A DNA stretch of 64,000 nt from a virus. Below are positions 26,914 to 40,120 of the stretch, piece after piece. Both the position numbers and the translations under genes were made by a program. The notes below the pieces were generated by a model, which was given only the letters and a program-made list of their open reading frames with translations, had not been told where the DNA came from and ran no database searches. Numbering within the stretch: the first letter of the stretch is position 1; every line of letters begins with the position of its first letter. Location of the stretch: positions 32,001 through 96,000 of IMG/VR virus record IMGVR_UViG_3300046464_000709, one strand, 5' to 3'.

Positions 26914-27129
26914 ATGAAATTATCAAAACCACAATTCGCATCCAACCCTAACGCCGACATGATCCTTCATGCTCTTACACTTGAAGAGTTGAACGAAGAG
27001 TTTACTCTCGCTCGGTTGTCATTAATGGATCTTGAGGAAGGGTCTGAAGAATACGAAGAACGCGAAGCGTACCTCGAAACCCTTAACGATTTCAGAATCG
27101 AAGCAATCGGCATTTCTGAATTCGCTTAA
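26914..27129 (+). CDS. small acidic early protein
   Basis: 71 aa; TTGCGT-17-TAGATT promoter upstream. Confidence 0.7.
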   Translation: MKLSKPQFASNPNADMILHALTLEELNEEFTLARLSLMDLEEGSEEYEEREAYLETLNDFRIEAIGISEFA

Positions 27130-27168
27130 AGCTTGACACATTCACACAAACCCTTTATTCTCTATACT

Positions 27169-27390
27169 ATGACAGAAACAATTAAAACAATAAAAAAATA
27201 TCCAACTCTCGAATGCTCGCTTGCAATGGCTAAAGCCGAAGGCAATTTAAAGTTTCTTGCATCTGCTAACATGGCGACCTTTACGCAAGGCGAGGCAGTG
27301 CTTGACGCATTGCACGCATTACAACAAGCTCGCAAAGAGTTTGCCAAGGTAACCAAGGAAGTCGCTGAATTAAGAGACGGCTTAATTTAA
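27169..27390 (+). CDS. small early protein (AEGNL family, paralogue of 27907-28137)
   Basis: Start reassigned to ATG 27169, 7 nt after TTGACA-17-TATTCT. Confidence 0.75.
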   Translation: MTETIKTIKKYPTLECSLAMAKAEGNLKFLASANMATFTQGEAVLDALHALQQARKEFAKVTKEVAELRDGLI

Positions 27391-27461
27391 TGCTTGAAAT
27401 AATAATAATCTCATTCATGATAGGAATCATAACAGCACTAAAAGAATTATGCGAAAAGTAA
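27390..27461 (+). CDS. 23-aa hydrophobic peptide
   Basis: MLEIIIISFMIGIITALKELCEK; ATG overlaps the upstream TAA; similar to 31562-31630. Confidence 0.45.
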   Translation: MLEIIIISFMIGIITALKELCEK

Positions 27462-27757
27462 CACAACAAATTAAACAAGCATTTGAACGCGGCGAAGCCA
27501 AGACAGTTGGCAATACCACCACAGACGGCAACACCGTTTGGTTACATGGCAACGCGATTGTCAAGCGTGACCCTGACGGCTTGGTTAGATGGTCGCTTGC
27601 AGGATGGAACACACCCACCACACGCGAACGCGTCAATGGCATAGCCAATGCAGATGTCTGTCAATTCAAATTCGAGCCTGTACTAAACGGGCAAGTGATT
27701 GACTCATCCGATTGGTTCGCATCGCCACCCAAGTTGCCCGACCTTCTAGTGTTCTAA
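27449..27757 (+). CDS. hypothetical phage protein
   Basis: 102 aa, LHGN.I..GWNT.TT.ER.N motif. Confidence 0.75.
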   Translation: MRKVTQQIKQAFERGEAKTVGNTTTDGNTVWLHGNAIVKRDPDGLVRWSLAGWNTPTTRERVNGIANADVCQFKFEPVLNGQVIDSSDWFASPPKLPDLLVF

Positions 27758-27831
27758 GTAGCACAAGATCAACGACTTAGGGCAAATCGCCCTAGCCGTT
27801 TTCTCGTAACTCGTTGAATACCAACGGCTTA
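27755..27831. repeat. double-dyad element 1
   Basis: 25-bp dyads start at 27755 and 27807 (52-bp pitch). Confidence 0.9.
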
Positions 27832-27871
27832 CAACAAAATAAAAAAAAGTTAAAATAAATCAAAATAATGC

Positions 27872-27900
27872 TTGACTTTTGCCGTTTTGTCTGATACATT
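27872..27900 (+). promoter_or_regulatory. sigma70-type promoter, leaderless
   Basis: TTGACT-17-TACATT, ATG 6 nt downstream. Confidence 0.75.
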
Positions 27901-27906
27901 GTATAT

Positions 27907-28137
27907 ATGATTAAGAATAATAAAGTTGAAGAAATAAGAAAAGAATTGGATTTGGATCTCGACCTTGGCTTGGCATTGGCTGAAGCAGAAGGCAACTTGA
28001 ACCACTTGGCACGAGAATCAAATTCTGCTAATTGGAAAGGTTCGATCACTCAAGGCATGACTATCCTTGACGCATTGAACGCAGTACAAAAAGCAAGAAA
28101 AGCTTTTCAACAAATAAAGCAAAATAAAACAAAATAA
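27907..28137 (+). CDS. small early protein (AEGNL family)
   Basis: LALAEAEGNL..TQG..ILDAL.A.Q.ARK. Confidence 0.75.
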   Translation: MIKNNKVEEIRKELDLDLDLGLALAEAEGNLNHLARESNSANWKGSITQGMTILDALNAVQKARKAFQQIKQNKTK

Positions 28138-28206
28138 AGTTTGCAATTACGCCCCAACTGTGTTACCTTTAGGTATAAGATAAATTAAATAATAACAATA
28201 AAAATT

Positions 28207-28392
28207 ATGAACTCAACATTAATAAAATTCCGAATCAGCGAGACTGAAAGAAATCTCCGAAACGCTACCGACTCGCAAGAGATCGCTCAACTTGAGAAGG
28301 ATCTCAAGGGGTGGAAGACTCATTTGCACAACACCGAAATGATTGAATTCGAAGAGCGTGTCGGCTTCAAGTCAATGGAGCGTAACGCTTAA
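28207..28392 (+). CDS. hypothetical protein
   Basis: 61 aa, own promoter. Confidence 0.65.
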   Translation: MNSTLIKFRISETERNLRNATDSQEIAQLEKDLKGWKTHLHNTEMIEFEERVGFKSMERNA

Positions 28393-28443
28393 ATAAATAA
28401 AAATAAAGCTCGACTTTTACAAATAAATACATTAGATTAAGAT

Positions 28444-28638
28444 ATGATTAAAAATAAAATACAAGTAAGAATCAAAGAGTGGTCAACTCATTGGTCAGTA
28501 AAAATCTTCGATCAAGGTATCGACTCAGATGGCAATGATCGCCCACGAGTAAGGACTGCATCAAGTCAATCGCATCTTGATAAGATCATGCGAGACGAAG
28601 GCCTTAATCAGTTTCGTTTTAATGTTGTTTTTCAATAA
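28444..28638 (+). CDS. hypothetical protein
   Basis: 64 aa; TCGACT-17-TAGATT 5 nt upstream. Confidence 0.7.
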   Translation: MIKNKIQVRIKEWSTHWSVKIFDQGIDSDGNDRPRVRTASSQSHLDKIMRDEGLNQFRFNVVFQ

Positions 28639-28679
28639 TAAAGCTTGACTTGCCAAAATAAACTCATTAGTATAGTAAA

Positions 28680-28961
28680 ATGTTAAAGAATAAAAAATTC
28701 ATCGCAAATGTTCATGTTTCTTCTATAGAGGGAAGACAAAAGCTTCCTTTGTGGAATACGAACACAAATTCGTTCATTGATACGCACATGACAAATAACA
28801 TCTTTGAAATCGAAGCTGAAGACAAGCACGAAGTAAGAAGAAAAGTTAAGGCTCTCGTGAATAAGCTTCAAACCAAAGTTCAATTCAAGCGTGGTCTTGT
28901 GGGCAAAGAAGGCGATAATGCTATGTGGTACATCAACAGAATAACAGAAAAAAACTCTTGA
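28680..28961 (+). CDS. hypothetical protein
   Basis: 93 aa; TTGACT-17-TAGTAT 6 nt upstream. Confidence 0.7.
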   Translation: MLKNKKFIANVHVSSIEGRQKLPLWNTNTNSFIDTHMTNNIFEIEAEDKHEVRRKVKALVNKLQTKVQFKRGLVGKEGDNAMWYINRITEKNS

Positions 28962-28992
28962 CTCTATCGCAAAAATTTGCTTTAATAATAAA

Positions 28993-29148
28993 ATGATAAA
29001 CGTATTCAGAAATCCGAATTTCTCAAATTGGTTTAATGTCGCCTTTAATGGCAAGCTAATTGACGGAGCAAGAACTCATGCACAAGCTATTGAAATAGCT
29101 AATCGTTTAAGCGTAAAGTACAAGTCACCTATTCTCTCGAGTAAGTAA
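28993..29148 (+). CDS. 51-aa hypothetical protein (not in ORF track)
   Basis: MINVFRNPNFSNWFNVAFNGKLID...; TTGACT-17-TTTAAT 6 nt upstream. Confidence 0.65.
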   Translation: MINVFRNPNFSNWFNVAFNGKLIDGARTHAQAIEIANRLSVKYKSPILSSK

Positions 29149-29167
29149 ACAAAACTGCAGTTTTCCC

Positions 29168-29244
29168 CAAGTCGCTAAGTATCAACGACTTAGGGCAAAC
29201 CGCCCTCCGGAGTTTTCCGTAACTCGTTGAGCGGCAACGACTTA
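29168..29244. repeat. double-dyad element 2
   Basis: Dyads at 29168 and 29220. Confidence 0.92.
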
Positions 29245-29403
29245 CAACAAAATCGATACAGATTCCGTGCCAATCTTCCAAGAAAATCGCAGCCAAATCG
29301 TGCAATAAAATAGTCGAAAGGTAAGTGAAAAAACCTCTTGACTTTGCTCCATTTTCTGATACATTGTATATATAACATTAAATTAATATAACAAAAATAA
29401 ATT

Positions 29404-29529
29404 ATGAATTACGACATCTTGCTTCTTTTAACTTTTATTCCTGCTTTCTTCTTTATGTACAAATCTATGACAGAAAAGAAAATTGATCTTTTTTCAGATG
29501 TGAGTAAAGAAAAGCTTGACACAAAATAA
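29404..29529 (+). CDS. 41-aa membrane peptide (not in ORF track)
   Basis: MNYDILLLLTFIPAFFFMYKS... Confidence 0.55.
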   Translation: MNYDILLLLTFIPAFFFMYKSMTEKKIDLFSDVSKEKLDTK

Positions 29530-29579
29530 AATTACTATAATATAAAATACTATAAAGTTAATTGCTAAAAATAAAAAAT

Positions 29580-30125
29580 ATGAAAATTAAAATATCTGAA
29601 GCTTGGAATAAACATCATGGAAAAAACTCTGTAAAGAGTAACCGAACAGATCTCGATCTCGGAGATATGCTGAAAATTTCAGAACAAATTCAAATCCAAT
29701 CAGAGCTTGAGGGAATCGAAAAATTGCAAAAGATGATCGAAGCAAAAAAGAAAGAGATTGCAAACATCAAAGAAAAATACAAAAAAATAAGAAACAAAAT
29801 TGCTCACGACCCAAAAGTGGAAATGTTGACAGAATCACAAGAAAGACACTGCTTTCTTAAATCAATTTCAAATCTTGGAGTAAGAAAAAAGAGTCTTGGA
29901 TGCTCGCTCGATCAATTCAGAATATTCTTAGATGTTCAACTCGAAGACGGCAAGTCTTGGTCTAATTGGACAAATAAAAATGTAGACAACGCTTGGAACA
30001 TTGATCACATACAAGAGCGACAAAGTGGAGGAGGAAATCATTGGTCAAACTTCGTACCTCGTGACAGAAAAGAAAATCTTAATAAAGGCAAACTCGAAAG
30101 TGCATTTAATCATTTCTTAAAATAA
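29580..30125 (+). CDS. HNH-type endonuclease domain protein
   Basis: LGCSLDQF..W.N..WNIDHI..NHWSNFVP..ENLNKG. Confidence 0.65.
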   Translation: MKIKISEAWNKHHGKNSVKSNRTDLDLGDMLKISEQIQIQSELEGIEKLQKMIEAKKKEIANIKEKYKKIRNKIAHDPKVEMLTESQERHCFLKSISNLGVRKKSLGCSLDQFRIFLDVQLEDGKSWSNWTNKNVDNAWNIDHIQERQSGGGNHWSNFVPRDRKENLNKGKLESAFNHFLK

Positions 30126-30173
30126 TTCACATTCACGCTTGACAGAAACAAAAAAATAGATTAGATTATACTT

Positions 30174-30368
30174 ATGAACGAAAAACAAAGACTACAAAAA
30201 ATAATTGACGAAAATCTCGAAGATGCAGAAAATGGCTCTTCATCGGCTAGGATGTGCGTAATCGCAGCTCAGGCAGATCTTGACAGAATCGCACAAGCAG
30301 AGGTTAGCGAGTTAGAGGCGTACATTGCTAGCACTCCACTGCCTGACCCGTTAATTTTGGTTGACTAG
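30174..30368 (+). CDS. hypothetical protein
   Basis: TTGACA-17-TAGATT, ATG 6 nt downstream. Confidence 0.7.
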   Translation: MNEKQRLQKIIDENLEDAENGSSSARMCVIAAQADLDRIAQAEVSELEAYIASTPLPDPLILVD

Positions 30369-30370
30369 CG

Positions 30371-30447
30371 TAAAGCGTTAGTAACCAACGACTTAGGGCA
30401 AACCGCCCTCCGGAGTTTTCCGTAACTCGTTGAGCGGCAACGACTTA
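30371..30447. repeat. double-dyad element 3
   Basis: Dyads at 30371 and 30423; near-identical to element 2 and its flank. Confidence 0.92.
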
Positions 30448-30576
30448 CAACAAAATCAATACAGATTCCGTGCCAACTTCGCAAGAAAACCGCAGTCGAA
30501 TTGTGCAAAAACATAGTTGAAAGGTAAGTGAGAAAAAGCTTGCAATTCACTAAAAAATAGATTAGATTACTTGTAT

Positions 30577-30780
30577 ATGATTAAGACAAAAGAAACACTA
30601 ATAAAAGAAATAGACTTCGGAACTAAGCTTGCACAAATGGAGGGAGCAATAGACTTTCTTCATTATATGCAAACAGAGAAAAAGGATTCCGACAGAACCT
30701 TGAGCGAAGAAATGACCACCAAAGGACTTCTTGAAAAGGTTCAAGAGCTTAGAAAAATATTCAAAGAATTACAAAAATAA
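30577..30780 (+). CDS. hypothetical protein (weakly AEGNL-like)
   Basis: TTGCAA-17-TAGATT, ATG 8 nt downstream. Confidence 0.7.
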   Translation: MIKTKETLIKEIDFGTKLAQMEGAIDFLHYMQTEKKDSDRTLSEEMTTKGLLEKVQELRKIFKELQK

Positions 30781-30829
30781 TTCACTTTGTGCTTGCAATT
30801 TACGAAAAAATAGATTAAATTAAATACAT

Positions 30830-31018
30830 ATGATTAAGAAAATTAAATTCAAAAAAGGCGATGTTCTCATCTCACGAGATAATAAAGTCTTTCAATTTAT
30901 TCAAGCTACCAAGCACGACACGCTTGGAATTATCGCAATGGTTCGCCCATACAGAACCAATCGCAAGGTTGGCATCCGATTTGAGGATGTAAAAATTCAC
31001 CCACTTTTTGCAAAATAA
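30830..31018 (+). CDS. small basic beta-rich protein
   Basis: FKKGDVL..; own promoter. Confidence 0.65.
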   Translation: MIKKIKFKKGDVLISRDNKVFQFIQATKHDTLGIIAMVRPYRTNRKVGIRFEDVKIHPLFAK

Positions 31019-31057
31019 GTTTGACAAACTCACATAATTAATCCATAATACTGAAAT

Positions 31058-31345
31058 ATGAATAACATTGATCTCATTCGCCAAGCAATCGAAAACGCAA
31101 AAGATGCTCCTATCTCAAAGGATGTTTCTAACTTTATACAAGACATGAAAGCCGAAATTATGGCTGAAGAGTTAGTTGTAGAGCATGGACTTCTTCAAGT
31201 CTCAAAAGAAGAAGTCCAAGACCAAGTCTCAGAATTCGCTTCTTCAGAAGATAAAGCTGACGAGGATGACGACTTTGACAATGACGAAAATCTCCACGAT
31301 ATGGATTCAGTCAGTCCATCCATGCGAGCAATCTTTGAAGATTGA
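31058..31345 (+). CDS. highly acidic small protein
   Basis: D/E-rich C-terminus; TTGACA-17-CATAAT upstream. Confidence 0.7.
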   Translation: MNNIDLIRQAIENAKDAPISKDVSNFIQDMKAEIMAEELVVEHGLLQVSKEEVQDQVSEFASSEDKADEDDDFDNDENLHDMDSVSPSMRAIFED

Positions 31346-31382
31346 TCTCGACAAGTCGCCCTTAATATGGTATAATACAAGC

Positions 31383-31556
31383 ATGAATAAAGCAATAATA
31401 GAAAAAATCGAAACACTAATCAGCACACTTCAGGCTCTAACAATTCAAAGAGTTAAAGCCTTGAGTCTCGGCAAGCAAGAAAAAGCAAGCCAAATTCAAG
31501 CCGTGCAAATAGACATTGATAATAAAATCCAAGAATTGGAAAGGTCAATGTCCTAG
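31383..31556 (+). CDS. small coiled-coil protein
   Basis: Start reassigned to ATG 6 nt after TCGACA-17-TATAAT. Confidence 0.65.
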   Translation: MNKAIIEKIETLISTLQALTIQRVKALSLGKQEKASQIQAVQIDIDNKIQELERSMS

Positions 31557-31561
31557 TGGAT

Positions 31562-31630
31562 ATGTTAACAATTATGATAATCGCATCGTTAATTGGAATC
31601 TTTAGAGGCTTAACAGATTGTGCTTTTTAA
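31562..31630 (+). CDS. 22-aa hydrophobic peptide
   Basis: MLTIMIIASLIGIFRGLTDCAF, similar to 27390-27461. Confidence 0.45.
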   Translation: MLTIMIIASLIGIFRGLTDCAF

Positions 31631-31674
31631 TTGCACGATGTCCTTGTAGGAAAATAAAAAAGTTCAGTTTTCTC

Positions 31675-31802
31675 TAAGTTGTTGAACATCAATGGCTTAG
31701 GGAAAACCGCCCAAGGCGTTTTCTTGTAACTCGTTGAACATTAACCACTTAGGGAAAACCGCCCTAGGCTTTTTTCGCAAGTCGTTGATTGTCAACAAGT
31801 TC
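31675..31802. repeat. triple-dyad element 4 at the transcription convergence point
   Basis: Dyads at 31675, 31727 and 31778 (52- and 51-bp pitch). Confidence 0.92.
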
Positions 31803-31905
31803 GGATTTCTTAGTTTAAATCATTATTTATGTATTTGTATTTACCAATTAAATATTTGATATTTCAATATTTGGTATTTGCTGCCTACAGAATTGTATTT
31901 GATGT

Positions 31906-32067
31906 TTACATTCTTGCCGTTCGTTTGACCAATGCAATTGTATAAGGTGAATGTTCAGTCGCTCGATCAAGATTTGATTCAAGGTTGCGAATGGCATTTA
32001 CAATATAATCGAGTGTGCCCACAATTCCGGCGGACTCTCCGTTTTTAAGTATTTGGTAACTAATCAT
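31906..32067 (-). CDS. 53-aa hypothetical protein (not in ORF track)
   Basis: MISYQILKNGESAGIVG...; overlaps the stop of the upstream gene. Confidence 0.55.
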   Translation of the reverse strand: MISYQILKNGESAGIVGTLDYIVNAIRNLESNLDRATEHSPYTIALVKRTARM

Positions 32068-32425
32068 GACTTACTCTTTCTTTGTGTTTTGCGTCTAGTT
32101 CGTCATTAAAATCTTGCCTAATTGAATGCAAAAGTTTTTCTTGTTGGAATCCATCTTGTTGGAATTGACTCATTAACTTAGAAACTTGCATTCTATCTTG
32201 CCAACCAAGTACATCGTCACAGATCTGTAATGGAACAAAATCTCCACGCTGATTGAAAATCGCGACTTCATAAGTGTCAGGATGATTTCCGTAAAAAGAA
32301 CTTCCTCCGTCCACATTGGATACAGCACTAATCGCGTAACCATTATCGAAAGTTATGCTCGCTTGAATGCCCAAATCTTTCGCACTTGGGTGAGGGTTAA
32401 ATGTTAAGTCATCAAAGGTCTTCAT
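32060..32425 (-). CDS. hypothetical phage protein
   Basis: FDNGY..S.V..YG..TYEVAI motif. Confidence 0.75.
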   Translation of the reverse strand: MKTFDDLTFNPHPSAKDLGIQASITFDNGYAISAVSNVDGGSSFYGNHPDTYEVAIFNQRGDFVPLQICDDVLGWQDRMQVSKLMSQFQQDGFQQEKLLHSIRQDFNDELDAKHKERVSHD

Positions 32426-32612
32426 GGTAGATGTATATTGGATTATTGTTGTGTGTGAGTGTTGCGTGTTTTACGAATGTTTTACTTGCGATGTTTTTCT
32501 TGAAAGTAGACTCAGAGATAAAGACATCGGTATGTTCGGTCTTCTTTTCTGCTTTGACAAGCACAACGCATCCGTCTTTACTTTTGGTGATTAAATGTTT
32601 TTCCTTGTTCAT
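32412..32612 (-). CDS. hypothetical protein
   Basis: 66 aa, packed in operon. Confidence 0.6.
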   Translation of the reverse strand: MNKEKHLITKSKDGCVVLVKAEKKTEHTDVFISESTFKKNIASKTFVKHATLTHNNNPIYIYHEDL

Positions 32613-32855
32613 TTAGTTGCGATAATGAGACGAGTCTTGTGATTCAGTGAGAGTTTCATAAGCGTGTGCTTTCTGAGCAATGCACTTTAAGGCACTGCCA
32701 ACTACATTCAACATTGAAAGTTGACCATTGTCAAGCATATTCTTGTCGGTCATTGGCTCAATCATGTTGTCGTGAATGAATGCCATCACTAATTCGTTTG
32801 CTTCGAGCGAGTCAATATCTTGGACTTGCAAGTGGTTTGGGTCGTTAAGGTACAT
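32613..32855 (-). CDS. hypothetical protein
   Basis: 80 aa, packed in operon. Confidence 0.65.
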   Translation of the reverse strand: MYLNDPNHLQVQDIDSLEANELVMAFIHDNMIEPMTDKNMLDNGQLSMLNVVGSALKCIAQKAHAYETLTESQDSSHYRN

Positions 32856-32970
32856 AAGTCAGTTTGGTTTTGTGTTTTAGTTTCCTATCAAGGATTTTGT
32901 TTTTCATCTTGAAAGGTCGAGCCTTAGTGAAAAGGATTTGATGTCTGAGCTTTATCTTTTTCGCCTTCAT
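32845..32970 (-). CDS. small basic protein
   Basis: MKAKKIKLRHQ...; ATG 7 nt after TTGACT-16-CATACT. Confidence 0.55.
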   Translation of the reverse strand: MKAKKIKLRHQILFTKARPFKMKNKILDRKLKHKTKLTYVP

Positions 32971-33033
32971 AAGTATTAGTATGACAGAATTTTTTGTGAA
33001 GTCAAGCGTTTTTTTGGTGAATAATAAAATGAT

Positions 33034-33135
33034 ACCAAACACGGAGGGAGTCGAACCCACAAGAGTATAATTAGGACTGCAATCCGCACCTCTCTTAATC
33101 ACCACTAATTTGCAGATTAGTTTGATCGTGTTGGT
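33034..33135 (-). ncRNA. tRNA-like small RNA with complementary loops
   Basis: Closing stem ACCAACACG/CGTGTTTGGT, T-arm GTGGG-TTCGACT-CCCTC, loops CTGCAA and TTGCAG; begins 7 nt after TTGACT-16-CATACT. Confidence 0.65.
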
Positions 33136-33201
33136 AAGTATTAGTATGTCAGAATCTCAAGCTAAGTCAACCCCTAAATGCAAAAAAAATAAAAATAGTT
33201 G

Positions 33202-33278
33202 TAAGCTCTTGATGCTCAATGACTTGCGCGAAACCGCCCAGGGCTTTTTGCCCTAACTAGTTCATAACCAACAGTTTA
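33202..33278. repeat. double-dyad element 5
   Basis: Dyads at 33202 and 33254. Confidence 0.85.
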
Positions 33279-33522
33279 TGACATCTGCATAAATACATAA
33301 TAAAATATATGCACTAAAGGTTAATAAAATTGATGTAAATAATAATGCTTTAATCATTTTAATATCCTAACCATTCCAATACTTTTTGTGCATTATACTC
33401 TTCTTTGTCGCCCATGTCCAAAATAAATTGATGAATATCTTGGCAACCATGTTTTGAGAGTTCCTCAAACGCTCTTGTTTGGCTAATCATTAAATCTTCG
33501 GCTGAATCGTAATATGTTTCAC

Positions 33523-34266
33523 TCATGAGTTTATCCCTTCCTTTACAAATCCTGTACTATCCTTTTTTGCCATGCCTTTCTCGATAAGACCAACGACCAC
33601 ACCTTGCTTGTCTAAAAAGCGAAGGTCATTATCATCACCATTAACAACCTCAAAACCTTTCCATGTCTTGGGTAATTGATTGCGAAATACAACGGCAACA
33701 TTGCCACCCATTGAAAGAACCATCTCGCATTTTGTATCGTTTGTTTCCGAGCGACTAAAAGTCAAGTGGTAATTAGAGGGAAACTTTGCCTCGCCCTTAA
33801 TAAAAGGCTTGTCGAGAAAAGAACACATTCTTTTAAATGATTTCGTATAATCATAAAACTGAACATCCGAAAATTTATCAAAGATTGACTTTGGCTGATC
33901 TTCGTTAAAGAAAACAGATTCCCACATAACATCGCTTGTGAGATTGAGCCGAAAGACTGACTTCATCCCTTTCTTTGTTGCACTCTTAATTGAATTAGAA
34001 ATTTCTTTCGATAGCTTGGCAAGAAAATCTAATTGATGATTGAAGAATAACTTTGTCTTGGCGACACGAGATTCTTGAATAGAATTCATTTGCCCACGAC
34101 CTGCTGTATTGAGGCAAGATGCCGTGCAACCTTTTGAACGCCAACGGCAAACTTCGAAGCCTGAAAGACTTGCTGGGGCAAAGTGAATGCCTTTCGTTAT
34201 GTAACCTAATTTCTCGCCTTTGAGAATTTTTTGATTACCTGATGTGAGAAGTGTTGTCTTAATCAT
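33523..34266 (-). CDS. GP88-like phage protein (Cys-cluster)
   Basis: C..SKGCTASCL..AGRG, FRLNLTSD, FYDYTK, YHLTFSRSE, GD..DLRFLD; leaderless ATG at 34266. Confidence 0.75.
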   Translation of the reverse strand: MIKTTLLTSGNQKILKGEKLGYITKGIHFAPASLSGFEVCRWRSKGCTASCLNTAGRGQMNSIQESRVAKTKLFFNHQLDFLAKLSKEISNSIKSATKKGMKSVFRLNLTSDVMWESVFFNEDQPKSIFDKFSDVQFYDYTKSFKRMCSFLDKPFIKGEAKFPSNYHLTFSRSETNDTKCEMVLSMGGNVAVVFRNQLPKTWKGFEVVNGDDNDLRFLDKQGVVVGLIEKGMAKKDSTGFVKEGINS

Positions 34267-34339
34267 GTATTCCATTATGACAGAATAAGGTGCGAAGTCA
34301 ACCCCTAAATGCAAAAAAAGTAAAAAAAGTTTTGTTGCG

Positions 34340-34416
34340 GATGTCGTTGATACGCAAAGGCTTACGAAAAAAAGCCTAGGCCCGTTTTCCATAACTGCCT
34401 GGCCTGCAACGACTTA
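34340..34416. repeat. double-dyad element 6
   Basis: Dyads at 34340 and 34392. Confidence 0.85.
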
Positions 34417-34437
34417 CGAAACAATAATTCAAGATGC

Positions 34438-34463
34438 AAAAAAGCCTCCCCGAAGGGAGGCTT
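34438..34463 (-). terminator. intrinsic terminator with UUCG tetraloop
   Basis: AAGCCTCCC-TTCG-GGGAGGCTT followed by T-run on the minus strand. Confidence 0.85.
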
Positions 34464-34489
34464 GAGCCTACTCGTTTCCGAGCTTGCGA

Positions 34490-34720
34490 TTAACCAACTG
34501 ACCTCTTAAAAGATTTGTTAGCACAAGTCGCACGAAGAACATGGCGACGATTAACTCGACGATTTGCTCCATTCATGTCCGAAAACATAACATGACGAGA
34601 AGTCACGCTATTGACTTTAGCAGAGAAGACCTTGCGTTGCTCACCTTGCTTGACAAGAAGAGAAACGAAACGACCTTTGAGACTATCAACTACATTTTTG
34701 AGTTTTGCTTGATTTTTCAT
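34490..34720 (-). CDS. small basic protein
   Basis: 76 aa, followed by terminator. Confidence 0.7.
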   Translation of the reverse strand: MKNQAKLKNVVDSLKGRFVSLLVKQGEQRKVFSAKVNSVTSRHVMFSDMNGANRRVNRRHVLRATCANKSFKRSVG

Positions 34721-34768
34721 AATTTTAATTTTTGTTAGGTTTGTGTTTTGGTTTTTGATTAAGAATGA

Positions 34769-35506
34769 TTACTTTACAAGTGCGACTTCGGAGTCAAGAA
34801 CACCATGCAATGCGAGAGAACGATTTGGTAAGGCATGAACTCCACCTTTAAGGACATGAGTAAAGCCGTTGTACAATGAGTGCATATTCCGAGCAGAAAA
34901 GTCATCATGTTCGGGTTTGTGCCATTGCTCAACTACATCAGCGATTTTGCCCTTGCTGATAGCACCATTTTGAAAAGCACGGATAACAAGGTCATGGGCT
35001 TGCTCGTTGCCAAGTTCGTACTCTTTGTACGCTTCGATGCGTTTCTCATCGCTTGCCCATGTCTCAGTCATCTTGCCGAGAGTGCGAGCGATAACTTGAG
35101 ACAAGTCAGTCAAAATGTTTTTTGTATGCCGTCTTGCAAGAGTCACTTCGTTAGTGAAGATAAGGTTGGAGCAAACAAATGGAGCATTGCCCATGCACAA
35201 ACCTGCTGGAAAGCATTTGTCGTGCGAGTTGCGAAGACCGAGAACTGTGCCACGATCATCAGCATCAGAACCTGTGTTCTTGACATGGAAGAGACCGAAG
35301 TAACGCTGACCGAATCGGTGAAGAGAATGGTAAGTGTCAACAATTTCCCAACCATTTTCTTGGATTTGGTTTTGCACACGATCAACAAGGAACGCATGAC
35401 CGATTGGTTGCCAAGACTCAGTCTTTTCGGGAGTCTGCACGGACTTTACTTCGCTAAAGTCAATTCTTTTTGTGCCACATACGGAGAGATCAATTTTTTT
35501 ATTCAT
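34769..35506 (-). CDS. DUF932-family protein
   Basis: LGLRNSHDK...FVCSNL..RRHT...LYNGFT motifs. Confidence 0.8.
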   Translation of the reverse strand: MNKKIDLSVCGTKRIDFSEVKSVQTPEKTESWQPIGHAFLVDRVQNQIQENGWEIVDTYHSLHRFGQRYFGLFHVKNTGSDADDRGTVLGLRNSHDKCFPAGLCMGNAPFVCSNLIFTNEVTLARRHTKNILTDLSQVIARTLGKMTETWASDEKRIEAYKEYELGNEQAHDLVIRAFQNGAISKGKIADVVEQWHKPEHDDFSARNMHSLYNGFTHVLKGGVHALPNRSLALHGVLDSEVALVK

Positions 35507-35704
35507 AATTTTTAGTGTTGGTTTATCGTCTTTGATGGGTTAATTATACGAAAGTTTTGGGGTTTTGTCAAGCTTTTTTTCTTCGATTAAGTTTTTTTTG
35601 TTTCGACTAATTTTTTTTAAGTTCAGTTATCGTCTTGATGTATACTAGTATGACAGAAAATAATGCAATGTCAACCCCTTTTTTTTATAAAGTTAAAGTT
35701 TTCG

Positions 35705-35781
35705 TAAGCTGTTGGATATCAATGAGTTAGGCCAAACCGGCCAGGGCGATTTTTCGTAAGTCGTTGAATGGCAAAGGCTAA
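35705..35781. repeat. double-dyad element 7
   Basis: Dyads at 35705 and 35757. Confidence 0.88.
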
Positions 35782-35982
35782 GGCGAGCTTGGATTGACCA
35801 AGCCCGCCCCATAATTAAACCCTTTTTTCGAGAGAATAAAGTTCGCCAAGAAGAAGGTTGTGAGCCAATTTTTTGGCAAACAATTCCTTCCCTCTTAAGC
35901 CTCGCAATTCAGCTTGAGCCAAAGCGTAGCCCATATTGCGAACTTTATTCCTAAGATTTTCAATTCGAGAATTTCGCATATC

Positions 35983-36192
35983 TTATCCTTGGTTAGGTTG
36001 TGAATAGTGGTTGTAAGATTGTTCTGCTTCTTGGGCAGAGTCAAAACTTACTGCAATTAAATCCCTTGAGTCGTAAGGATGCCAAGGTGTGTCAGACTCC
36101 TCAAAGTACAACTCCCATAGCTCGGTGTCTTCGTTAAAACTTGGTTTATCAAGAGGTTCTCCCTCGCATACTGCATCAATATATTCGTTCAT
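35983..36192 (-). CDS. small acidic protein
   Basis: 69 aa. Confidence 0.65.
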   Translation of the reverse strand: MNEYIDAVCEGEPLDKPSFNEDTELWELYFEESDTPWHPYDSRDLIAVSFDSAQEAEQSYNHYSQPNQG

Positions 36193-36194
36193 TC

Positions 36195-36392
36195 TTATCC
36201 TTTCATGTGTTTGATTAATTGGTCAAGAACAGATTGCTTATTGCCCTTGAATCCGAATTCAGATTTTACAATCGAGTAGCAACTTTGACCTCTTGACATT
36301 TTCATGCCGTGAATTTCCATCTTTAAACCTCTTGCGAGAGTCCGTAATCGGAATGCGTTAATTTGTTGTGGTGTGTCTAATATCATGCTCAT
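36195..36392 (-). CDS. hypothetical phage protein
   Basis: LKMEIHGMKMSRG; leaderless promoter. Confidence 0.7.
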   Translation of the reverse strand: MSMILDTPQQINAFRLRTLARGLKMEIHGMKMSRGQSCYSIVKSEFGFKGNKQSVLDQLIKHMKG

Positions 36393-36430
36393 AATGTATA
36401 GTTTGTCAGATTTTCAGCGAAAGTCAAGCC

Positions 36431-36838
36431 TTAATACCAACAAGAGTAAAAAATTCTGTGCTTTTTCTCAAGCATTTTCCTTGCTTCCTTGATGAATGCT
36501 AAGTCAGATTCCTTGTACCAATAATCGTTATCGGCATGAGGTTCATCATTTTCGTCAGTCCAAAAATAAGAATCAGAACCAAAAAAGAATCCATTCGTTT
36601 GGGGTAGCTCAAAGTTAAGAATTGCCTCCTCAAGAGAATCAATATCTTCAGATGTGAGTGGTAATACTGCACAATTAAAATCACCATCTTCGCTTGCGTT
36701 TGGACAACCTTTGCTTTGCCAAAGACCTTCCATCCAACCTTGCAAGCGATTATGTTTTCTCCACTCGCCAATTTGAATATCGTTATCTGAATTGCGTTTG
36801 CGTGGTGGTCGTGCGTATGCGTATTGATCTAATCCCAT
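36431..36838 (-). CDS. phage protein, MGLD...WRK.N type
   Basis: MGLDQY..WRKHN.L.GW..LP.T.GFFFG..YSCWY. Confidence 0.8.
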   Translation of the reverse strand: MGLDQYAYARPPRKRNSDNDIQIGEWRKHNRLQGWMEGLWQSKGCPNASEDGDFNCAVLPLTSEDIDSLEEAILNFELPQTNGFFFGSDSYFWTDENDEPHADNDYWYKESDLAFIKEARKMLEKKHRIFYSCWY

Positions 36839-36854
36839 GATTTTTTCCTTGTGT

Positions 36855-37103
36855 TTATAGTTGTGCTGATTGAAATGAAGACTCTATTCTAAGCTCATTT
36901 TGCAATGATGTCAAACTTAAAATGATGTCTTCTAAAACTTCTTCGGCTGATTGAAATGTACTTCCAAGTGGAAACTTTTCGGGATGACGCTCGTTCTGCT
37001 CCAAGCATACCTTGGACATTGGATCTGCATATGCCATTTCTCCTCGAACGATGTTCAAAATGTTTTCTCTAATTTTTGCTTGCGTCATGATTAATTTTTC
37101 CAA
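36855..37103 (-). CDS. hypothetical protein
   Basis: ORF in operon; start uncertain. Confidence 0.6.
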   Translation of the reverse strand: MEKLIMTQAKIRENILNIVRGEMAYADPMSKVCLEQNERHPEKFPLGSTFQSAEEVLEDIILSLTSLQNELRIESSFQSAQL

Positions 37104-37236
37104 TCTACTGAATCGATATCTTCTTCGCCTTGTCCAAAAATCATCTCAAAGATTTTAATGAGCTCAGGTGGTGATAAAATAGGAAGGTTCTCTTGGATTT
37201 CCTTTAGGAGTTGCGTTTTGGTTGTTTGTGTTTCAT

Positions 37237-37635
37237 TCATAATACTGCTAATACTTGTTTGGGTTCTAATCTTACGGCAATAGCATAGTCTACCATTTGT
37301 TCCGTGTCCTTGTCAACAAAATTCTCATACTTATATGGATTGTAAGAAACAGGTCGTGCGGTGGGATGAGAATCCCTCCAATCGCCCATTTGCCAATTCT
37401 CTATATAGCCTTCGACTCCTGCGTGAACATTTTTACGCTGTTCTTTTAAAACTCTTTCTCGCCCACTCTTGCTAACCTTGAAAGTGCAACTATGCATTGC
37501 CAATAATTTAGTGTGAGCCTTGACCAATCCATCTTGCTTGATACTCCAACATTTTTTGTGAAGATTCTTGTAAACAAAAACAGGACTGCCAAAGTCAATC
37601 TTATATCTTTTTTCGTTAGGCTTTGTCTCGATCAT
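37237..37635 (-). CDS. hypothetical phage protein
   Basis: VY.NLHK.CWS..F.VS..GRERVL.E.RKNVHA..V.YNPYK; leaderless promoter. Confidence 0.8.
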   Translation of the reverse strand: MIETKPNEKRYKIDFGSPVFVYKNLHKKCWSIKQDGLVKAHTKLLAMHSCTFKVSKSGRERVLKEQRKNVHAGVEGYIENWQMGDWRDSHPTARPVSYNPYKYENFVDKDTEQMVDYAIAVRLEPKQVLAVL

Positions 37636-37737
37636 AAATACAAGTATGACAGGTTTTCACCTCAAGTCAACCTTTTTCTTCATTTTTTTCTAAACCTATT
37701 CCCAATTTATGTCGACTCTGTCGACAGGTCAAGCCGT

Positions 37738-37770
37738 ATATGTCGATAAAATTAGATTTTATCGACATAT
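37738..37770. repeat. perfect inverted repeat with 15-bp arms
   Basis: ATATGTCGATAAAAT-TAG-ATTTTATCGACATAT. Confidence 0.85.
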
Positions 37771-37800
37771 TGAAGTCAGGGCATCCTTTTTAAAACATTG

Positions 37801-37877
37801 CAAGTCGTTGGTAGCCAATTAGTTATGAAAAAACGCCTAGGCGGATTTTCCGCAACTTGTTGATATACAATGACTTA
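37801..37877. repeat. double-dyad element 8
   Basis: Dyads at 37801 and 37853. Confidence 0.88.
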
Positions 37878-38087
37878 TGTAATTTTTAATTTTATTCTTT
37901 TTTTTCTGAATTTATTTACATTTTACTTCCTTTATTTGGATTGTTATTTGTTTCCCCCTTATTTGTAATATATATAATTGGTATTTGGTTGTTATATTTG
38001 AAGGAGTAGACTTTTATTCCTTATCGTCGTAGTAACCTCGAACCATTCCTATTAAAAATGCAGCGCAGATCAGTAAAGTTAACTCCA

Positions 38088-38663
38088 CTATGCTGTCTTG
38101 CTGTATTGCTTCCAGATTTCAAGATCAAGATCAGTAACGGATTTACCTAATTGGCGAGCAATGTTCTTGAAAATATTCGCGAAATAATGGTATGTATTCT
38201 CCTTCGTTGGCGTGCTCTTTGGGGCGTCCGTGTATCCTTGATCACGAAGGAACCTGAGGATATGAGTGTCGAGCATTGGTTCATCAAAGTCTTCGCGGCT
38301 ATGAGAGAGAAAGAACCTTGCTGTCTTAAGCCCGATACCAGCGACTTCTAAAAGCCTGTTTAATGTAACCGTTTGAAGATCTTGAATCTTTGATACAGCA
38401 ACATAAGAGTTGTATCTTTGCTTGTATGGACTAAGCTTAGCCCAATGCATAATCTCTTGGAGCCGGCCCAATTTAATTAATTTTCTTATACAATTAAATG
38501 GACTTGTTTCTTTTGTTATGTTTTTTGCTCTCTCTATGAACACTTCTAATTTAGGTGCTTCGATTGAACTTTTCTTTCCTGCTACATTAATACAGAATAG
38601 GATAAATTCTTCTAATTCGTTGTGTGATCTATTATAGTTTGTTACTTCAGCTGGATTAATCAT
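38088..38663 (-). CDS. HhH-GPD superfamily DNA glycosylase-like protein
   Basis: HhH VAGIGLKTARFFL, LDTHILRFL, C-terminal LDLEIW. Confidence 0.75.
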   Translation of the reverse strand: MINPAEVTNYNRSHNELEEFILFCINVAGKKSSIEAPKLEVFIERAKNITKETSPFNCIRKLIKLGRLQEIMHWAKLSPYKQRYNSYVAVSKIQDLQTVTLNRLLEVAGIGLKTARFFLSHSREDFDEPMLDTHILRFLRDQGYTDAPKSTPTKENTYHYFANIFKNIARQLGKSVTDLDLEIWKQYSKTA

Positions 38664-38681
38664 ATGTTTTTTTGTTTATGG

Positions 38682-38936
38682 TTATTGTGCAATGTGAAAT
38701 GCTTTACGAAGGTTGTCGCATTCTTGTCCACAAAGAAATACTTCTCTGCAATAGTCAATGTTTTTTGACTCAATATGCTTGATGAGTTTTACTGCTTGAT
38801 GAGCAGGAACTCGATCACGAGGCATGCCTCCCCATTTGATCACTACCCTCATGTGAGGAAAGTGTTCGTTGATTTCAGCAAGTTGAGCTGAGTTGATGTA
38901 TCCGTAGTTCGCAAGAATGTTTTTTATTGTTTCCAT
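38682..38936 (-). CDS. hypothetical protein
   Basis: Start reassigned to ATG 38936, 7 nt after TTGACA-16-CATACT. Confidence 0.7.
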   Translation of the reverse strand: METIKNILANYGYINSAQLAEINEHFPHMRVVIKWGGMPRDRVPAHQAVKLIKHIESKNIDYCREVFLCGQECDNLRKAFHIAQ

Positions 38937-38973
38937 GATATCTAGTATGACAGAATTAAAAGCAATGTCAAAC

Positions 38974-39015
38974 AAAAAAACCTGCCCAAGGAGAGAAAGA
39001 AAAACCTTGGACAGG
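38974..39015 (-). terminator. intrinsic terminator
   Basis: CCTGTCCAAGG...CCTTGGGCAGG followed by T7. Confidence 0.8.
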
Positions 39016-39360
39016 TCTGAATGCATGATTAAGAAATAGATGTGGGAAGGGATTACTGTATACCCTCGACTTTTCGGGATGAACATCAGTTCATTGTGTA
39101 CCTACTTTGCACTACAAATTAGACTTGGCATTCGTCATCGACTCATCCGATTGGACTCTATCGCTCCACCACAGAGAATTTGCATACCTTAGCCCGCTCA
39201 TCACAGGCTTGCTCAGTCACCCACAGGAAGGATTATAAGCCCTTCCAAATAGAATGGAACGAGTCAATGTCCGATACTCAGCTATCAACTCATTGTTCCA
39301 AAAGTGTTTAAAATGTTAAAGATCGATTATTTATTTTGATTAAGTTTGTTTCTTAATTAT
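38974..39360 (-). ncRNA. putative ~390-nt structured non-coding RNA
   Basis: Consensus promoter, no ATG at +1, GC-richer multi-hairpin body, terminator. Confidence 0.65.
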
Positions 39361-39395: not shown

Positions 39396-39657
39396 GTACT
39401 TTTTTATTATTTGATGTTCTATTTATTCTTAATAAGTCTTCTTGTATTTGATTAATATATTTGTATGTATTATTTGCATCAATTATTTTATTGTTTGGAT
39501 ATTGTGTGCAATGATAAAGATCAGCAATAAATTCATTTAGCTTGGCGAGCTTAACATAAACATATTCTTTTTCAGTTAGCTCGTTACGAAGTTCTTGTTC
39601 TGTGGCGAACATCGAGGCTTTTGGGGATAGTGGCTTAATCATATGAATATTGAGCAA
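39385..39657 (-). CDS. hypothetical protein
   Basis: ORF in operon; start uncertain. Confidence 0.6.
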   Translation of the reverse strand: MLNIHMIKPLSPKASMFATEQELRNELTEKEYVYVKLAKLNEFIADLYHCTQYPNNKIIDANNTYKYINQIQEDLLRINRTSNNKKVLDK

Positions 39658-40120
39658 GTTTATTTAAGTTTTTTTTGTTTGCTTTTAACAAAGAATATGT
39701 TTGAAAAAGATCAGAAATAGATTTCTTTTTCGTGCTACAATTATTGTATTTTGGTAGGTAATTTAAAATAAATTTTCTTTCTGTTTCATTCATCCAAATA
39801 GTGCAAAGACTAGGATTAGGTTTACGAAGAGATATTCTTTTGGTTGAATTTTTACTTACAAGTTTAGCCTCTTTTTCTACTTTGCTCGGAGGAAGCAAAT
39901 AATAAACTTTACTAAAATTTTTGTTCGATTGATGCGACCCCACTCTTTGAAGTAGATTTGCTGTTTGCCCAACATAAACCACCTCATCTTCTTCTGAAAC
40001 CAAGAAATAAACGCAACAAAATTCTTTTGCTTCTCCCTTGAATCTTCTTAATCTGCCAATCTTTTTAATTGATTGTCTGAATTCGGGGTTGATTATTTTT
40101 ATAAACTCTTCCGTTATCAT
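39635..40120 (-). CDS. GIY-YIG nuclease-like protein
   Basis: CVYFL..VVYVGQT.NL..R..SH...E..I...PKYN. Confidence 0.75.
   Translation of the reverse strand: MITEEFIKIINPEFRQSIKKIGRLRRFKGEAKEFCCVYFLVSEEDEVVYVGQTANLLQRVGSHQSNKNFSKVYYLLPPSKVEKEAKLVSKNSTKRISLRKPNPSLCTIWMNETERKFILNYLPKYNNCSTKKKSISDLFQTYSLLKANKKNLNKLAQYSYD

Follow-up and report, generated by a model that had tools for sequence, protein, structure and literature searches.

In the T4-type phages RB49/phi1, PST/T4 and nt-1/KVP40, promoter early stem-loops (PeSLs) combine a stem-loop or terminator-like piece with a sigma-70-type early promoter at the borders of units of small ORFan genes, in hyperplastic regions between the core modules of the genome (PMC2839356; PMC4122927). 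Here we describe elements of comparable organization in a viral DNA stretch of 64,000 nucleotides (positions 32,001 to 96,000 of the IMG/VR record IMGVR_UViG_3300046464_000709), hereinafter the window, in whose numbering coordinates are given. Its early-gene region contains, between positions 27755 and 37877, eight intergenic elements made up of 25-bp dyads around GC-rich spacers. As judged from sequence comparison, the PeSL is the closest known kind to these elements. What they appear to add over PeSLs is a conserved, predicted site of the integration host factor (IHF) type, which is paired and palindromic, recurs across a marine phage family and lies at preferred distances upstream of early promoters. 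We are fairly confident that the element is a protein-bound promoter-upstream and boundary module that would also serve as a crossover point. The more specific proposal of a PeSL-like early-unit boundary module with predicted IHF-type sites is the best explanation as a whole, although our confidence in it is no better than evenly poised.

The likeness to PeSLs is incomplete. The best-conserved part of the window's module is the two 25-bp dyads upstream of the promoter, which are not described for PeSLs in the portions of those reports that are available (the term 'IHF' occurs 0 times in that of PMC2839356), and a GC-rich spacer, with a hairpin mostly no better than chance, takes the place of the stem-loop. 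A second described system is BIME-1 of Escherichia coli (a bacterial interspersed mosaic element built of repetitive extragenic palindromes, REPs), whose members are reported to act as terminators, mRNA stabilizers and topological insulators and to bind IHF, Pol I and gyrase (PMC3333891). Both BIME-1 and the window elements are intergenic repeats combining GC-rich palindromic units with an IHF or IHF-like site, but BIME-1 runs REP, linker with IHF site, inverted REP, whereas the window elements run IHF-like dyad, GC spacer, IHF-like dyad (PMC3333891). Moreover, BIMEs are chromosomal with REP copies genome-wide, while copies of the window type occupy one 15-kb block of a 211-kb relative genome. 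Among IHF-stimulated phage early promoters, lambda pL and Mu Pe have a single bend site about 80–90 bp upstream of a strong promoter, and the Correia elements of Neisseria are small intergenic chromosomal repeats, resembling miniature inverted-repeat transposable elements (MITEs), that carry an IHF site. In contrast to these promoters and to Correia elements, the module in the window is paired and repeated at every early unit.

The original prediction had claimed 17 dyads of 25 bp with the consensus YAA-N4-TTG-N5-CAA-N4-TTR, and every one is present at the start claimed for it. Element 1 (27755–27831) comprises a dyad at 27755–27779, a 27-nt spacer and a dyad at 27807–27831; the stop codon of the open reading frame (ORF) at 27449–27757 is the first TAA of the former dyad. 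Pairs of dyads likewise constitute element 2 (29168–29244; dyad starts 29168 and 29220), element 3 (30371–30447; 30371 and 30423), element 5 (33202–33278; 33202 and 33254), element 6 (34340–34416; 34340 and 34392), element 7 (35705–35781; 35705 and 35757) and element 8 (37801–37877; 37801 and 37853, with the spacer core CGCCTAGGCG). Element 5 best resembles elements 1–3 in inverted orientation. Element 4 (31675–31802) is a triple dyad (31675, 31727 and 31778) and does sit, as claimed, where transcription converges, between the last + strand ORF (end 31556) and the first − strand ORF (end 31906). The pitch within elements is 52 bp in eight intervals and 51 bp in one (31727 to 31778), and the distances between elements also agree with the earlier account. 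All elements are intergenic once the N-terminal extension of one − strand ORF (33523–34392) is set aside: the longest frame of this GP88-like gene (PF17338) overlaps element 6, but the Pfam match covers it only from residue 48 onward, and near 34266 there is a promoter with an ATG behind it, so that its first ~42 codons are probably noncoding.

A symmetrized position weight matrix (PWM) built from the 17 dyads, and hence circular as a test, scores them at 18.7–32.5; the next best position in the 64-kb window reaches 13.7, in agreement with the claim that there are no copies elsewhere in it. Of the 21 window positions scoring at least 10, 17 are the listed dyads. The degenerate consensus with at most one mismatch has 20 matches in the window, as against 2.21 ± 1.54 in shuffled sequence (maximum 7, with 0 of 100 shuffles reaching 20). 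Fourteen of these matches are listed dyads and six lie elsewhere in the window, and the dyads at 27755, 29168 and 34340 have more than one mismatch to this consensus. A 151-nt repeat, 91% identical between 29183–29333 and 30386–30536 and also found in relatives, spans the second dyad in each of elements 2 and 3 together with about 90 nt to its right; the 96-nt conserved stretch to the right of these two elements has an RNA fold no better than shuffles (z = −0.04).

IHF introduces two DNA kinks, usually at ApA steps, 9 bp apart; one is the AA of WATCAA, the WATCAR block occupies the interval between them, and TTR belongs to the flank, with its center T 6 bp from the nearer kink (PMC1874591; 10.1101/382655; PMC5829579). 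Given this published geometry of kink and TTR, one kink would fall at the AA of the CAA in the half-site. In the dyad, the steps T8-T9 and A17-A18 are exactly 9 bp apart, each with an N4-TTR outward of it; these mirrored steps make the dyad, in effect, a symmetrized IHF-type site. Together, the window and 200 IMG/VR loci supplied 865 sites, which comprise 731 distinct 25-mers. A logo drawn from 1672 half-sites reads W 76%, A 45%, T 77%, C 88%, A 99%, R 99% (A 81, G 18), N4, T 95%, T 98% and R 97%, and so agrees with the IHF consensus WATCAR-N4-TTR down to the degenerate letters W, R and R. CAA-N4-TT is present in 1152 of these half-sites, TCAA-N4-TTR in 885 and the full WATCAR-N4-TTR in 413, with the corresponding counts among the 34 half-sites of the window being 26, 14 and 4. 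Thus, the resemblance of the half-dyad to the IHF consensus is, by virtue of these degeneracies and the 9-bp ApA steps, stronger than the original prediction had it. An exact match, which was also claimed for four sequences, applies over the full 13 nt to only 4 of the 34 window half-sites, CAA-N4-TT being the form kept in most (26 of 34).

The likeness to IHF sites (consensus WATCAANNNNTTR; PMC1874591, 10.1101/382655, PMC5829579) extends from letters, degeneracies and ApA steps to size: the 34 bp of an IHF site (PMC1874591) equal the smallest center-to-center distance between dyads, which is 34 bp in five elements of four loci. However, canonical IHF sites are asymmetric, with the consensus in one half and, in many cases, an A-tract in the opposite half, the latter being an optional feature (10.1101/382655; PMC1874591). 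The dyads show no A-tract opposite the consensus and carry the mirrored consensus there instead.

A palindrome may also be drawn as a hairpin, and one alternative is that the elements act in RNA, with dyad stem-loops and the spacer hairpin terminating, stabilizing or processing early transcripts in the manner of RNase III-type sites or bidirectional terminators. The dyad can indeed be drawn as an 11-bp stem, some elements permit a three-hairpin fold, two spacers pass a terminator scan, and the stretch is present in metatranscriptome assemblies. Terminator-like sequences occur on the + strand at 27777–27795 (spacer and end of the first dyad of element 1; seven pairs followed by CCGTTTTCTC) and at 31748–31768 (second spacer of element 4, followed by CTTTTTT). 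Moreover, the predicted Rho-independent terminators of Stenotrophomonas phage DLP6 that Table 1 of PMC5349666 lists have the half-site immediately on their 5′ side. Yet the folds vary by element and strand, the symmetry is retained despite one-directional transcription, the GC-rich spacers of most lineages have no T-tracts and fold about as well as shuffles, and no Rfam family matches the elements. Covariation, too, is absent. Across the 731 unique 25-mers, the mutual information of mirrored positions is 0.000–0.041 bits, and Watson–Crick pairs are formed by 321 of 731 at positions 4/22 and by 315 of 731 at positions 7/19. The two halves of a dyad pair at 7.54 of 11 positions, as against 7.75 for halves re-paired within a locus (555 dyads of the 50 loci with at least five). 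Compared with the reverse complement of the second dyad, the first agrees at 16.10 of 25 positions within an element and at 16.65 between elements of the same locus, and the complementarity of spacer halves is 0.568 for own halves versus 0.626 between elements. In one sub-lineage (L020 and L048) the inner half-sites have drifted and the pairing is gone, while the AA..TG..CAA..TTA positions are kept.

Hence, mirrored-position, own-half and whole-element tests uncover no compensatory base-pair change, and since pairing is neither in excess nor retained in that sub-lineage, the dyad symmetry is best understood as a consensus read on duplex DNA and not on a folded strand. This supports the view that the dyads behave like double-stranded protein-binding sites as opposed to duplicated or structured RNA, and renders an action in RNA improbable. 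Of the 'palindrome of palindromes' originally proposed, the symmetry stands as a product of the shared consensus, but pairing between dyads falls away (16.10 vs 16.65). Likewise, the notion of an architectural protein-binding system survives in that the sites behave as protein sites, but the conserved geometry on which it was founded does not hold, as the pitch varies. Nor is variation mainly found in the N4 positions: the most variable ones are dyad positions 4 and 7, the positions mirroring them, and the central 3–5 nt. Among the 32 pieces listed (151–681 nt) from the assembled contigs of four metatranscriptome runs, none spans a whole element, and the runs gave neither joints nor calls of starts or ends, which bears neither way on the matter.

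The predicted protein sites are associated with promoters. On the + strand, a TG-extended sigma-70-type promoter (27872–27900; TTGACT, 17, TACATT) lies 40 nt downstream of element 1 with an ATG at 27907, and a promoter-like site (29338–29365) lies 93 nt downstream of element 2. On the − strand, promoters are found 31 nt from the edge of element 5 (33143–33170; TTGACT, 16, CATACT, TG-extended), 38 nt from that of element 6 (34274–34301, with the probable start of the GP88-like gene near 34266), 30 nt from that of element 7 (35647–35674; TTGACA, 16, CATACT) and 130 nt from that of element 8 (37643–37670, with a weaker candidate 68 nt away at 37704–37732). The triple dyad has no promoter. Overall, the gaps are 30, 31, 38 and 40 nt at four of the eight elements, 92–93 nt at two and 68 or 130 nt at one. 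Over 722 unique flanks in the wider set, a strict promoter points away from the element in 81 and towards it in 15, and the −35 box starts 30–39 nt from the dyad edge in 38 of those 81. A looser model recovers promoters in 168 of 719 flanks, with gap peaks at 20 (11 cases), 30–31 (40) and 40–41 nt (26) that are drawn from several pitch classes and many loci; by arithmetic, these gaps put the center of the promoter-proximal dyad near −68, −78 or −88. They are suggestive of a 10-bp periodicity in the distance between dyad and promoter.

The first genes of many early units start 6–8 nt after the −10 box (27872–27909, 34264–34301, 37237–37260 and others), and the early mRNAs accordingly look leaderless. 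Several of these genes open with the identical letters ATGATTAAGA. A Shine–Dalgarno-like motif precedes only 8 of the 51 window ORFs.

A homologue search with the GP88-like gene yielded 57 loci. Five dyads or more occur in 38 of them and one to four in 9, and the other 10 lack any at score 16. Across 383 distinct paired elements from the window and the 200 loci, the commonest pitches are 52 bp (107 elements in 22 loci), 50 (57), 42 (49), 48 (24) and 41 (23), followed by 46 (21), 47 and 51 (19 each), 58 (17) and 55 (10), with a few more ranging from 34 to 68. The pitch is tight inside a lineage and free across lineages, half-integral helical turns included, and five helical turns are therefore not a conserved constraint. 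The claim of conserved geometry fails accordingly, with relatives at 34, 40–43, 46–51, 53–55, 58 and 60 bp; of the two features on which the original prediction had staked itself, intergenic placement is conserved and the 52-bp pitch is not.

The spacers have a G+C content of 58–97% in phage genomes of 35–45%. Their folding is close to that of composition-matched shuffles in most pitch classes and exceeds it in the pitch-58 class, which has a clear hairpin (−14.2 vs −9.2 kcal/mol), in the pitch-40 and pitch-49 classes, and mildly at 52. In the lineage of the window, the spacer consists of an A-run, a GC core often centered on CCTAGG and a T-run, and it may serve, in this lineage only, as a weak terminator. 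Many spacers have CCTAGG, or a sequence one letter away from it, at their center (e.g., 37834–37843, 31760–31767 and 34373–34380), also in the pitch-49 and pitch-55 lineages; this core might bind a second protein or be a target of restriction or methylation.

A near-consensus dyad occurs in more than 143 IMG/VR stretches. In the 211-kb relative (G002, complete by CheckV), 25 of the 27 hits scoring at least 13 fall within 1.9–16.7 kb. Such clustering in 15 kb indicates that the elements belong to one early-gene block and not to a genome-wide architecture. Repeated protein-type sites in arrays, together with a single three-copy array in a divergent intergenic region of another complete genome (G006), might recall a replication origin, a partition (parS) cluster or a packaging signal. 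However, 8–13 elements extend across 10–15 kb, and every one of them goes with a promoter and a unit border; a general scan of the window found no ParB-like family; and the G006 array also precedes a hairpin and a promoter-like site. Nor do the sites form the single direct-repeat cluster of an iteron origin, being 8–13 dispersed, paired and inverted sites (no search for an initiator gene was made). We regard this group of functions as very improbable, and the parS-like or origin cluster of the original prediction is not borne out, as the sites track promoters and unit boundaries.

Comparison of relatives shows cassettes exchanged between the elements. In locus L001, two double elements lie 326 bp apart around an A-rich tract, a promoter and a 62-aa ORF, and the dyad positions and cassette map give the same two-element unit in L002, L003 and L005. 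In the window, as in L004, L007 and L045, this unit is absent and the two elements are fused to a triple dyad, which we read from this alignment of forms as the scar of a lost promoter-plus-ORF cassette. The situation parallels RB49 ORF192 as against the single PeSL of phi1, close relatives there too differing by motif-flanked cassettes (PMC2839356; PMC4122927). We mapped cassettes in 13 loci by single-linkage clustering at 50% cover, so that some cassette numbers may join paralogues. On one arm, the order 2-3-4-0 is constant in all 13, while the other arm shows orders such as 6-5-1, 1-5-1-7, 5-8-7-7 and 1-5-8-7. On this arm, L001, L003 and L005 contain the 249-bp cassette 9, which is missing from six triple-dyad loci and also from four more diverged loci without a triple at that place. 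Cassette 5 is replaced by cassette 11 in L045 or by cassette 8 in L012 and L008. In the diverged loci L025 and L030, the match to the window is limited to the elements at three places, the elements being conserved far better than the genes between them. Thus, gene content between elements differs among relatives with breakpoints at the elements, as a cassette organization had been expected to show, and the indels and replacements are bordered by the motif in the manner of PeSLs.

Cassettes also turn over at promoters that have no dyad, as evidenced by indels at 28143–28391 and 30776–31007, where relatives lack one copy of a repeated mini-unit. These promoter-bearing mini-units recur at 269 bp (27850, 28119 and 28388) and at 253 bp (30538 and 30791), each with an ORF of 61–76 aa.

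Cassette gain and loss with borders inside dyads, replacement and reordering at the elements, and a 77-bp unit with terminal inverted symmetry are all features that would suit the sites of a dedicated site-specific recombinase, or mobile entities such as integron-attC-like cassettes or MITE-like insertions. Against such an origin, which we deem quite improbable, the tyrosine (PF00589) and serine (PF00239) recombinase families are found in 0 of 3 CheckV-complete relatives and in none of the window ORFs, with 14 of 14 and 12 of 14 control genomes matched by the same search. In addition, each cassette has its own promoter, the elements are syntenic and limited to one block, and the indels at repeated dyad-less promoters fall outside any such site. 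Finally, crossovers in 80–95 bp of shared homology need homologous recombination only. The shared module is roughly 60–80% identical over 80–95 bp, and ~90% in the closest pair; homologous recombination between repeated modules would be enough for the cassette changes, as has been put forward for PeSLs (PMC2839356; PMC4122927). IHF/HU proteins (PF00216) are likewise found in 0 of the 3 complete relatives, in none of the window ORFs and not in DLP6. The phage-borne IHF/HU or tyrosine recombinase suggested earlier as something to look for is thus absent from these sequences, and any IHF or HU involved would have to be that of the host.

A comparable site exists in a published phage. Outside subscription journals, searching text for the motif letters matched a single phage paper, that on DLP6, through its terminator table. 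This work reports 25 'phage promoters' predicted by PHIRE, 22 of them in groups of two, ahead of gene clusters (PMC5349666). With at most two mismatches, the half-site AATCAACGACTTA is found 29 times on the + strand of the DLP6 genome (KU682439.2), as 14 tandem pairs at 25–26 bp and one single copy inside an annotated gene, and four times on the − strand, as one triple and one single copy. A GC hairpin, a TTTACT −35 and a TATAAT-like −10 come after every one of the pairs. Going by positions and counts, the 'phage promoters' probably are the half-site pairs, and the tandem pair, hairpin and promoter together can be viewed as a PeSL-type cassette, which would make them an unrecognized published instance of the PeSL-like kind. 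The paper terms these sites promoters, and its available text does not mention IHF (PMC5349666). In both phages, half-sites in pairs precede gene clusters together with a GC-rich hairpin or spacer and a sigma-70-type promoter, but in DLP6 they are direct repeats 25–26 bp apart, both upstream of the hairpin, whereas in the window palindromic dyads flank the GC spacer. DLP6 and G002 share only nine weak ORF matches (E ≤ 1e-4), all metabolic or tail-like, and BLAST of a DLP6 cassette against cultured phages returned DLP6 itself and one 30-nt match at chance level.

Tandem arrays of two to five half-sites, ~21–26 bp apart, are found in a further 38 IMG/VR stretches. In the stretches L259–L296 and in G006 (L297), direct half-site arrays are followed by a GC hairpin and a TTTACA-type promoter. 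G006, a complete genome of 36.5 kb, has a single array of three (10667–10721) in a divergent intergenic region, followed by a hairpin and a promoter-like site. The identical site in differing arrangements across unrelated phages argues for a conserved host protein. More speculatively, and with less than an even chance by a wide measure, the 12–13-nt site (ATCAACGACTTA and close variants) would be a portable upstream module of early promoters, common to unrelated phages of different hosts and recruiting one conserved host protein, which would work as enhancer, unit insulator and recombination handle at once. Its forms would then be the paired dyads of the ~200-kb marine DnaE phages, the 25-bp tandem pairs of DLP6, a T4-like soil phage, and the ~22-bp arrays of the 36.5-kb phage and of further IMG/VR contigs; the binder may be IHF in an unusual symmetric or arrayed mode, or another protein.

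We also scanned 185,579 species genomes with the 20-nt dyad core, and the 34 stretches recovered yielded no host. Most are single perfect palindromes by tRNA genes or gene ends in unrelated phyla, and by our own estimate their count is about that expected by chance among terminator-type hairpins; the remaining stretches are phage-like contigs binned into metagenome-assembled genomes (MAGs; L205/L206/L215 and L213). Single copies of the full 25-bp consensus dyad are seen in two phyla of gut bacteria, in Akkermansia MAGs (L217, L222, L225 and L231) and Fibrobacter MAGs (L214, L216 and L226), with a second palindrome of GGAACATTCC-like letters nearby in six of these seven loci and not in the flanks of L214. 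Other single-copy dyads adjoin tRNA genes in Bacteroidota and Proteobacteria. Most of these single dyads are probably ordinary terminator hairpins. Word searches of the literature for IHF with phage early promoters or intergenic repeats, with subscription journals outside their scope, returned nothing on this system. A search of five records for a T7-type RNA polymerase (PF00940) gave no match, but neither did it match any control genome, and it is therefore uninformative. Readings of the elements as nut-like (boxA plus boxB) sites or DnaA boxes were dropped because palindromic symmetry and a variable spacer do not fit them.

As to the protein itself, we see slightly less than an even chance that IHF or HU is the one bound, and several observations weigh against it and against the boundary module as proposed. 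All 13 consensus letters are present in only 340 of the 1672 half-sites, and the window-derived PWM with which the sites were gathered favors G over C/T at the R position by ~2.8 bits. The N4 positions (c 59%, g 70%, A 84% and c 61% in the 1672 half-sites) are conserved above what the published IHF consensus needs, and N4 = CGAC is common to DLP6; this might mean a more specific protein of another kind, or the horizontal spread of one module. Half-sites spaced 21–26 bp apart in tandem are closer than a 34-bp IHF site permits for simultaneous full wrapping, and these tandem forms look more like the iterons of a small monomeric binder; of the observations listed here, this tight spacing counts most against classical, fully wrapped IHF. 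On the side of the promoters, the gaps are 68–130 nt in three of the seven promoter-bearing window elements, and a recognizable promoter accompanies only the 168 flanks noted above out of 719. The 10-bp periodicity covers three periods, has a Rayleigh statistic about equal at 11 and 10, and comes down to 90 cases with R = 0.39 when similar spacers are collapsed; a single broad distance mode together with homologous copies may be an alternative to it. Lastly, the case for a terminator role of the spacers is weak, as the terminator scan flags only two out of the nine and the regional total of 9 equals the shuffle mean of 9.0.

The conservation of N4, with identical CGAC in unrelated phages, is what one would expect of operators for a sequence-specific regulator other than IHF, either a small phage protein or another conserved host factor, that places one subunit on each half-site and switches the early units. 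The half-site takes the form of inverted dyads, 25-bp tandem pairs or ~22-bp arrays of three to five, just as in iterons and operators, the sites are limited to the early block, and most early ORFs have no family, among which a binder could hide. On the other hand, no DNA-binding family occurs among the 37 Pfam-scanned and 33 PHROG-scanned ORFs of 26.9–41 kb, and the nine matches between G002 and DLP6 at the above threshold offer no shared candidate protein. The site centers lie ~68–88 bp upstream of the start, off the promoter, which is unusual for a repressor, and the W, R and R degeneracies of the logo are specifically IHF-like. On balance, we consider such a regulator unlikely, while giving it more weight than any of the RNA, recombinase or origin alternatives.

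Returning to the boundary module with IHF-type sites, we envisage each element as the upstream boundary of an early transcription unit, in the order 25-bp dyad, GC-rich spacer, 25-bp dyad, an A/T-rich tract of ~20–40 bp and a sigma-70-type promoter with an extended −10. The binder would most likely be a DNA-bending protein of the IHF/HU family from the host, with one dimer per dyad in either orientation. A sharp bend upstream of the promoter could fold the upstream DNA back onto RNA polymerase and so raise early transcription, and the pair of bends around the GC spacer might insulate neighboring, heavily transcribed units from each other. In the window lineage, the spacer hairpin and T-tract might add weak termination. 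As the same ~80–95-bp module recurs at each unit border, it would also be a crossover point for homologous recombination, through which cassettes could be deleted, inserted, replaced and reordered like those at the PeSLs of T4-type phages.

The window phage codes for rIIA/rIIB, an ATP-dependent ligase, PhoH, a large terminase with a T4-type N-domain, a ClpB-like ATPase and a DnaE-type polymerase fragment. Besides rIIA/rIIB and the T4-type terminase N-domain, it thus has a polymerase of the DnaE type, and the relation of G002 to the T4-like DLP6 is confined to the nine weak ORF matches. The DnaE-type (Pol III alpha) fragment (2–1885, +), the ClpB-like double AAA+ ATPase (1902–4388, +) and a weak sigma-70 region-2 match (13195–13962, −) form, beside rIIA/rIIB, a set that is unusual for a phage. 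Seawater runs from at least 12 studies contain the window's own stretch. Among 50,697 cultured-phage records there is no DNA match to 27000–39000 (megablast) or to 31600–31900 (blastn), and the large terminase (TerL), the GP88-like protein and rIIA are only 24–46% identical to cultured-phage proteins. By these comparisons, the window appears to be part of a large uncultured marine phage with no close cultured relative.

The region of 26.9–41 kb is a block of small ORFs, mostly without family assignment, transcribed rightward to 31556 and leftward from 31906. In or beside it are two GIY-YIG ORFs (Pfam E-values of 1.3e-7 and 3.7e-6, above the cut-off) and one weak HNH-like ORF, at 29562–30125 (+), 39635–40120 (−) and 44126–44782 (−). 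These are possible homing endonucleases that might also drive local gene exchange. Inside the early region, just past the last element, the − strand at 39037–39246 has a full-length match to the Rfam manA motif (RF01745; 71.3 bits vs a gathering score of 55.2, E = 8.8e-17).

The early regions of large phages contain the majority of their uncharacterized host-takeover and anti-defense genes, whose expression and exchange are poorly understood outside T4. The module described here provides a sequence signature for early units and their borders in uncultured phages. It also makes for a testable claim, namely that early promoters of phages incorporate a host architectural protein, with DLP6 on Stenotrophomonas as a cultured system. 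Should the binder not be IHF, the site would be a handle on a widely used DNA-binding protein. Were the module portable between unrelated phages, early-gene cassettes would move between them already wired for expression.

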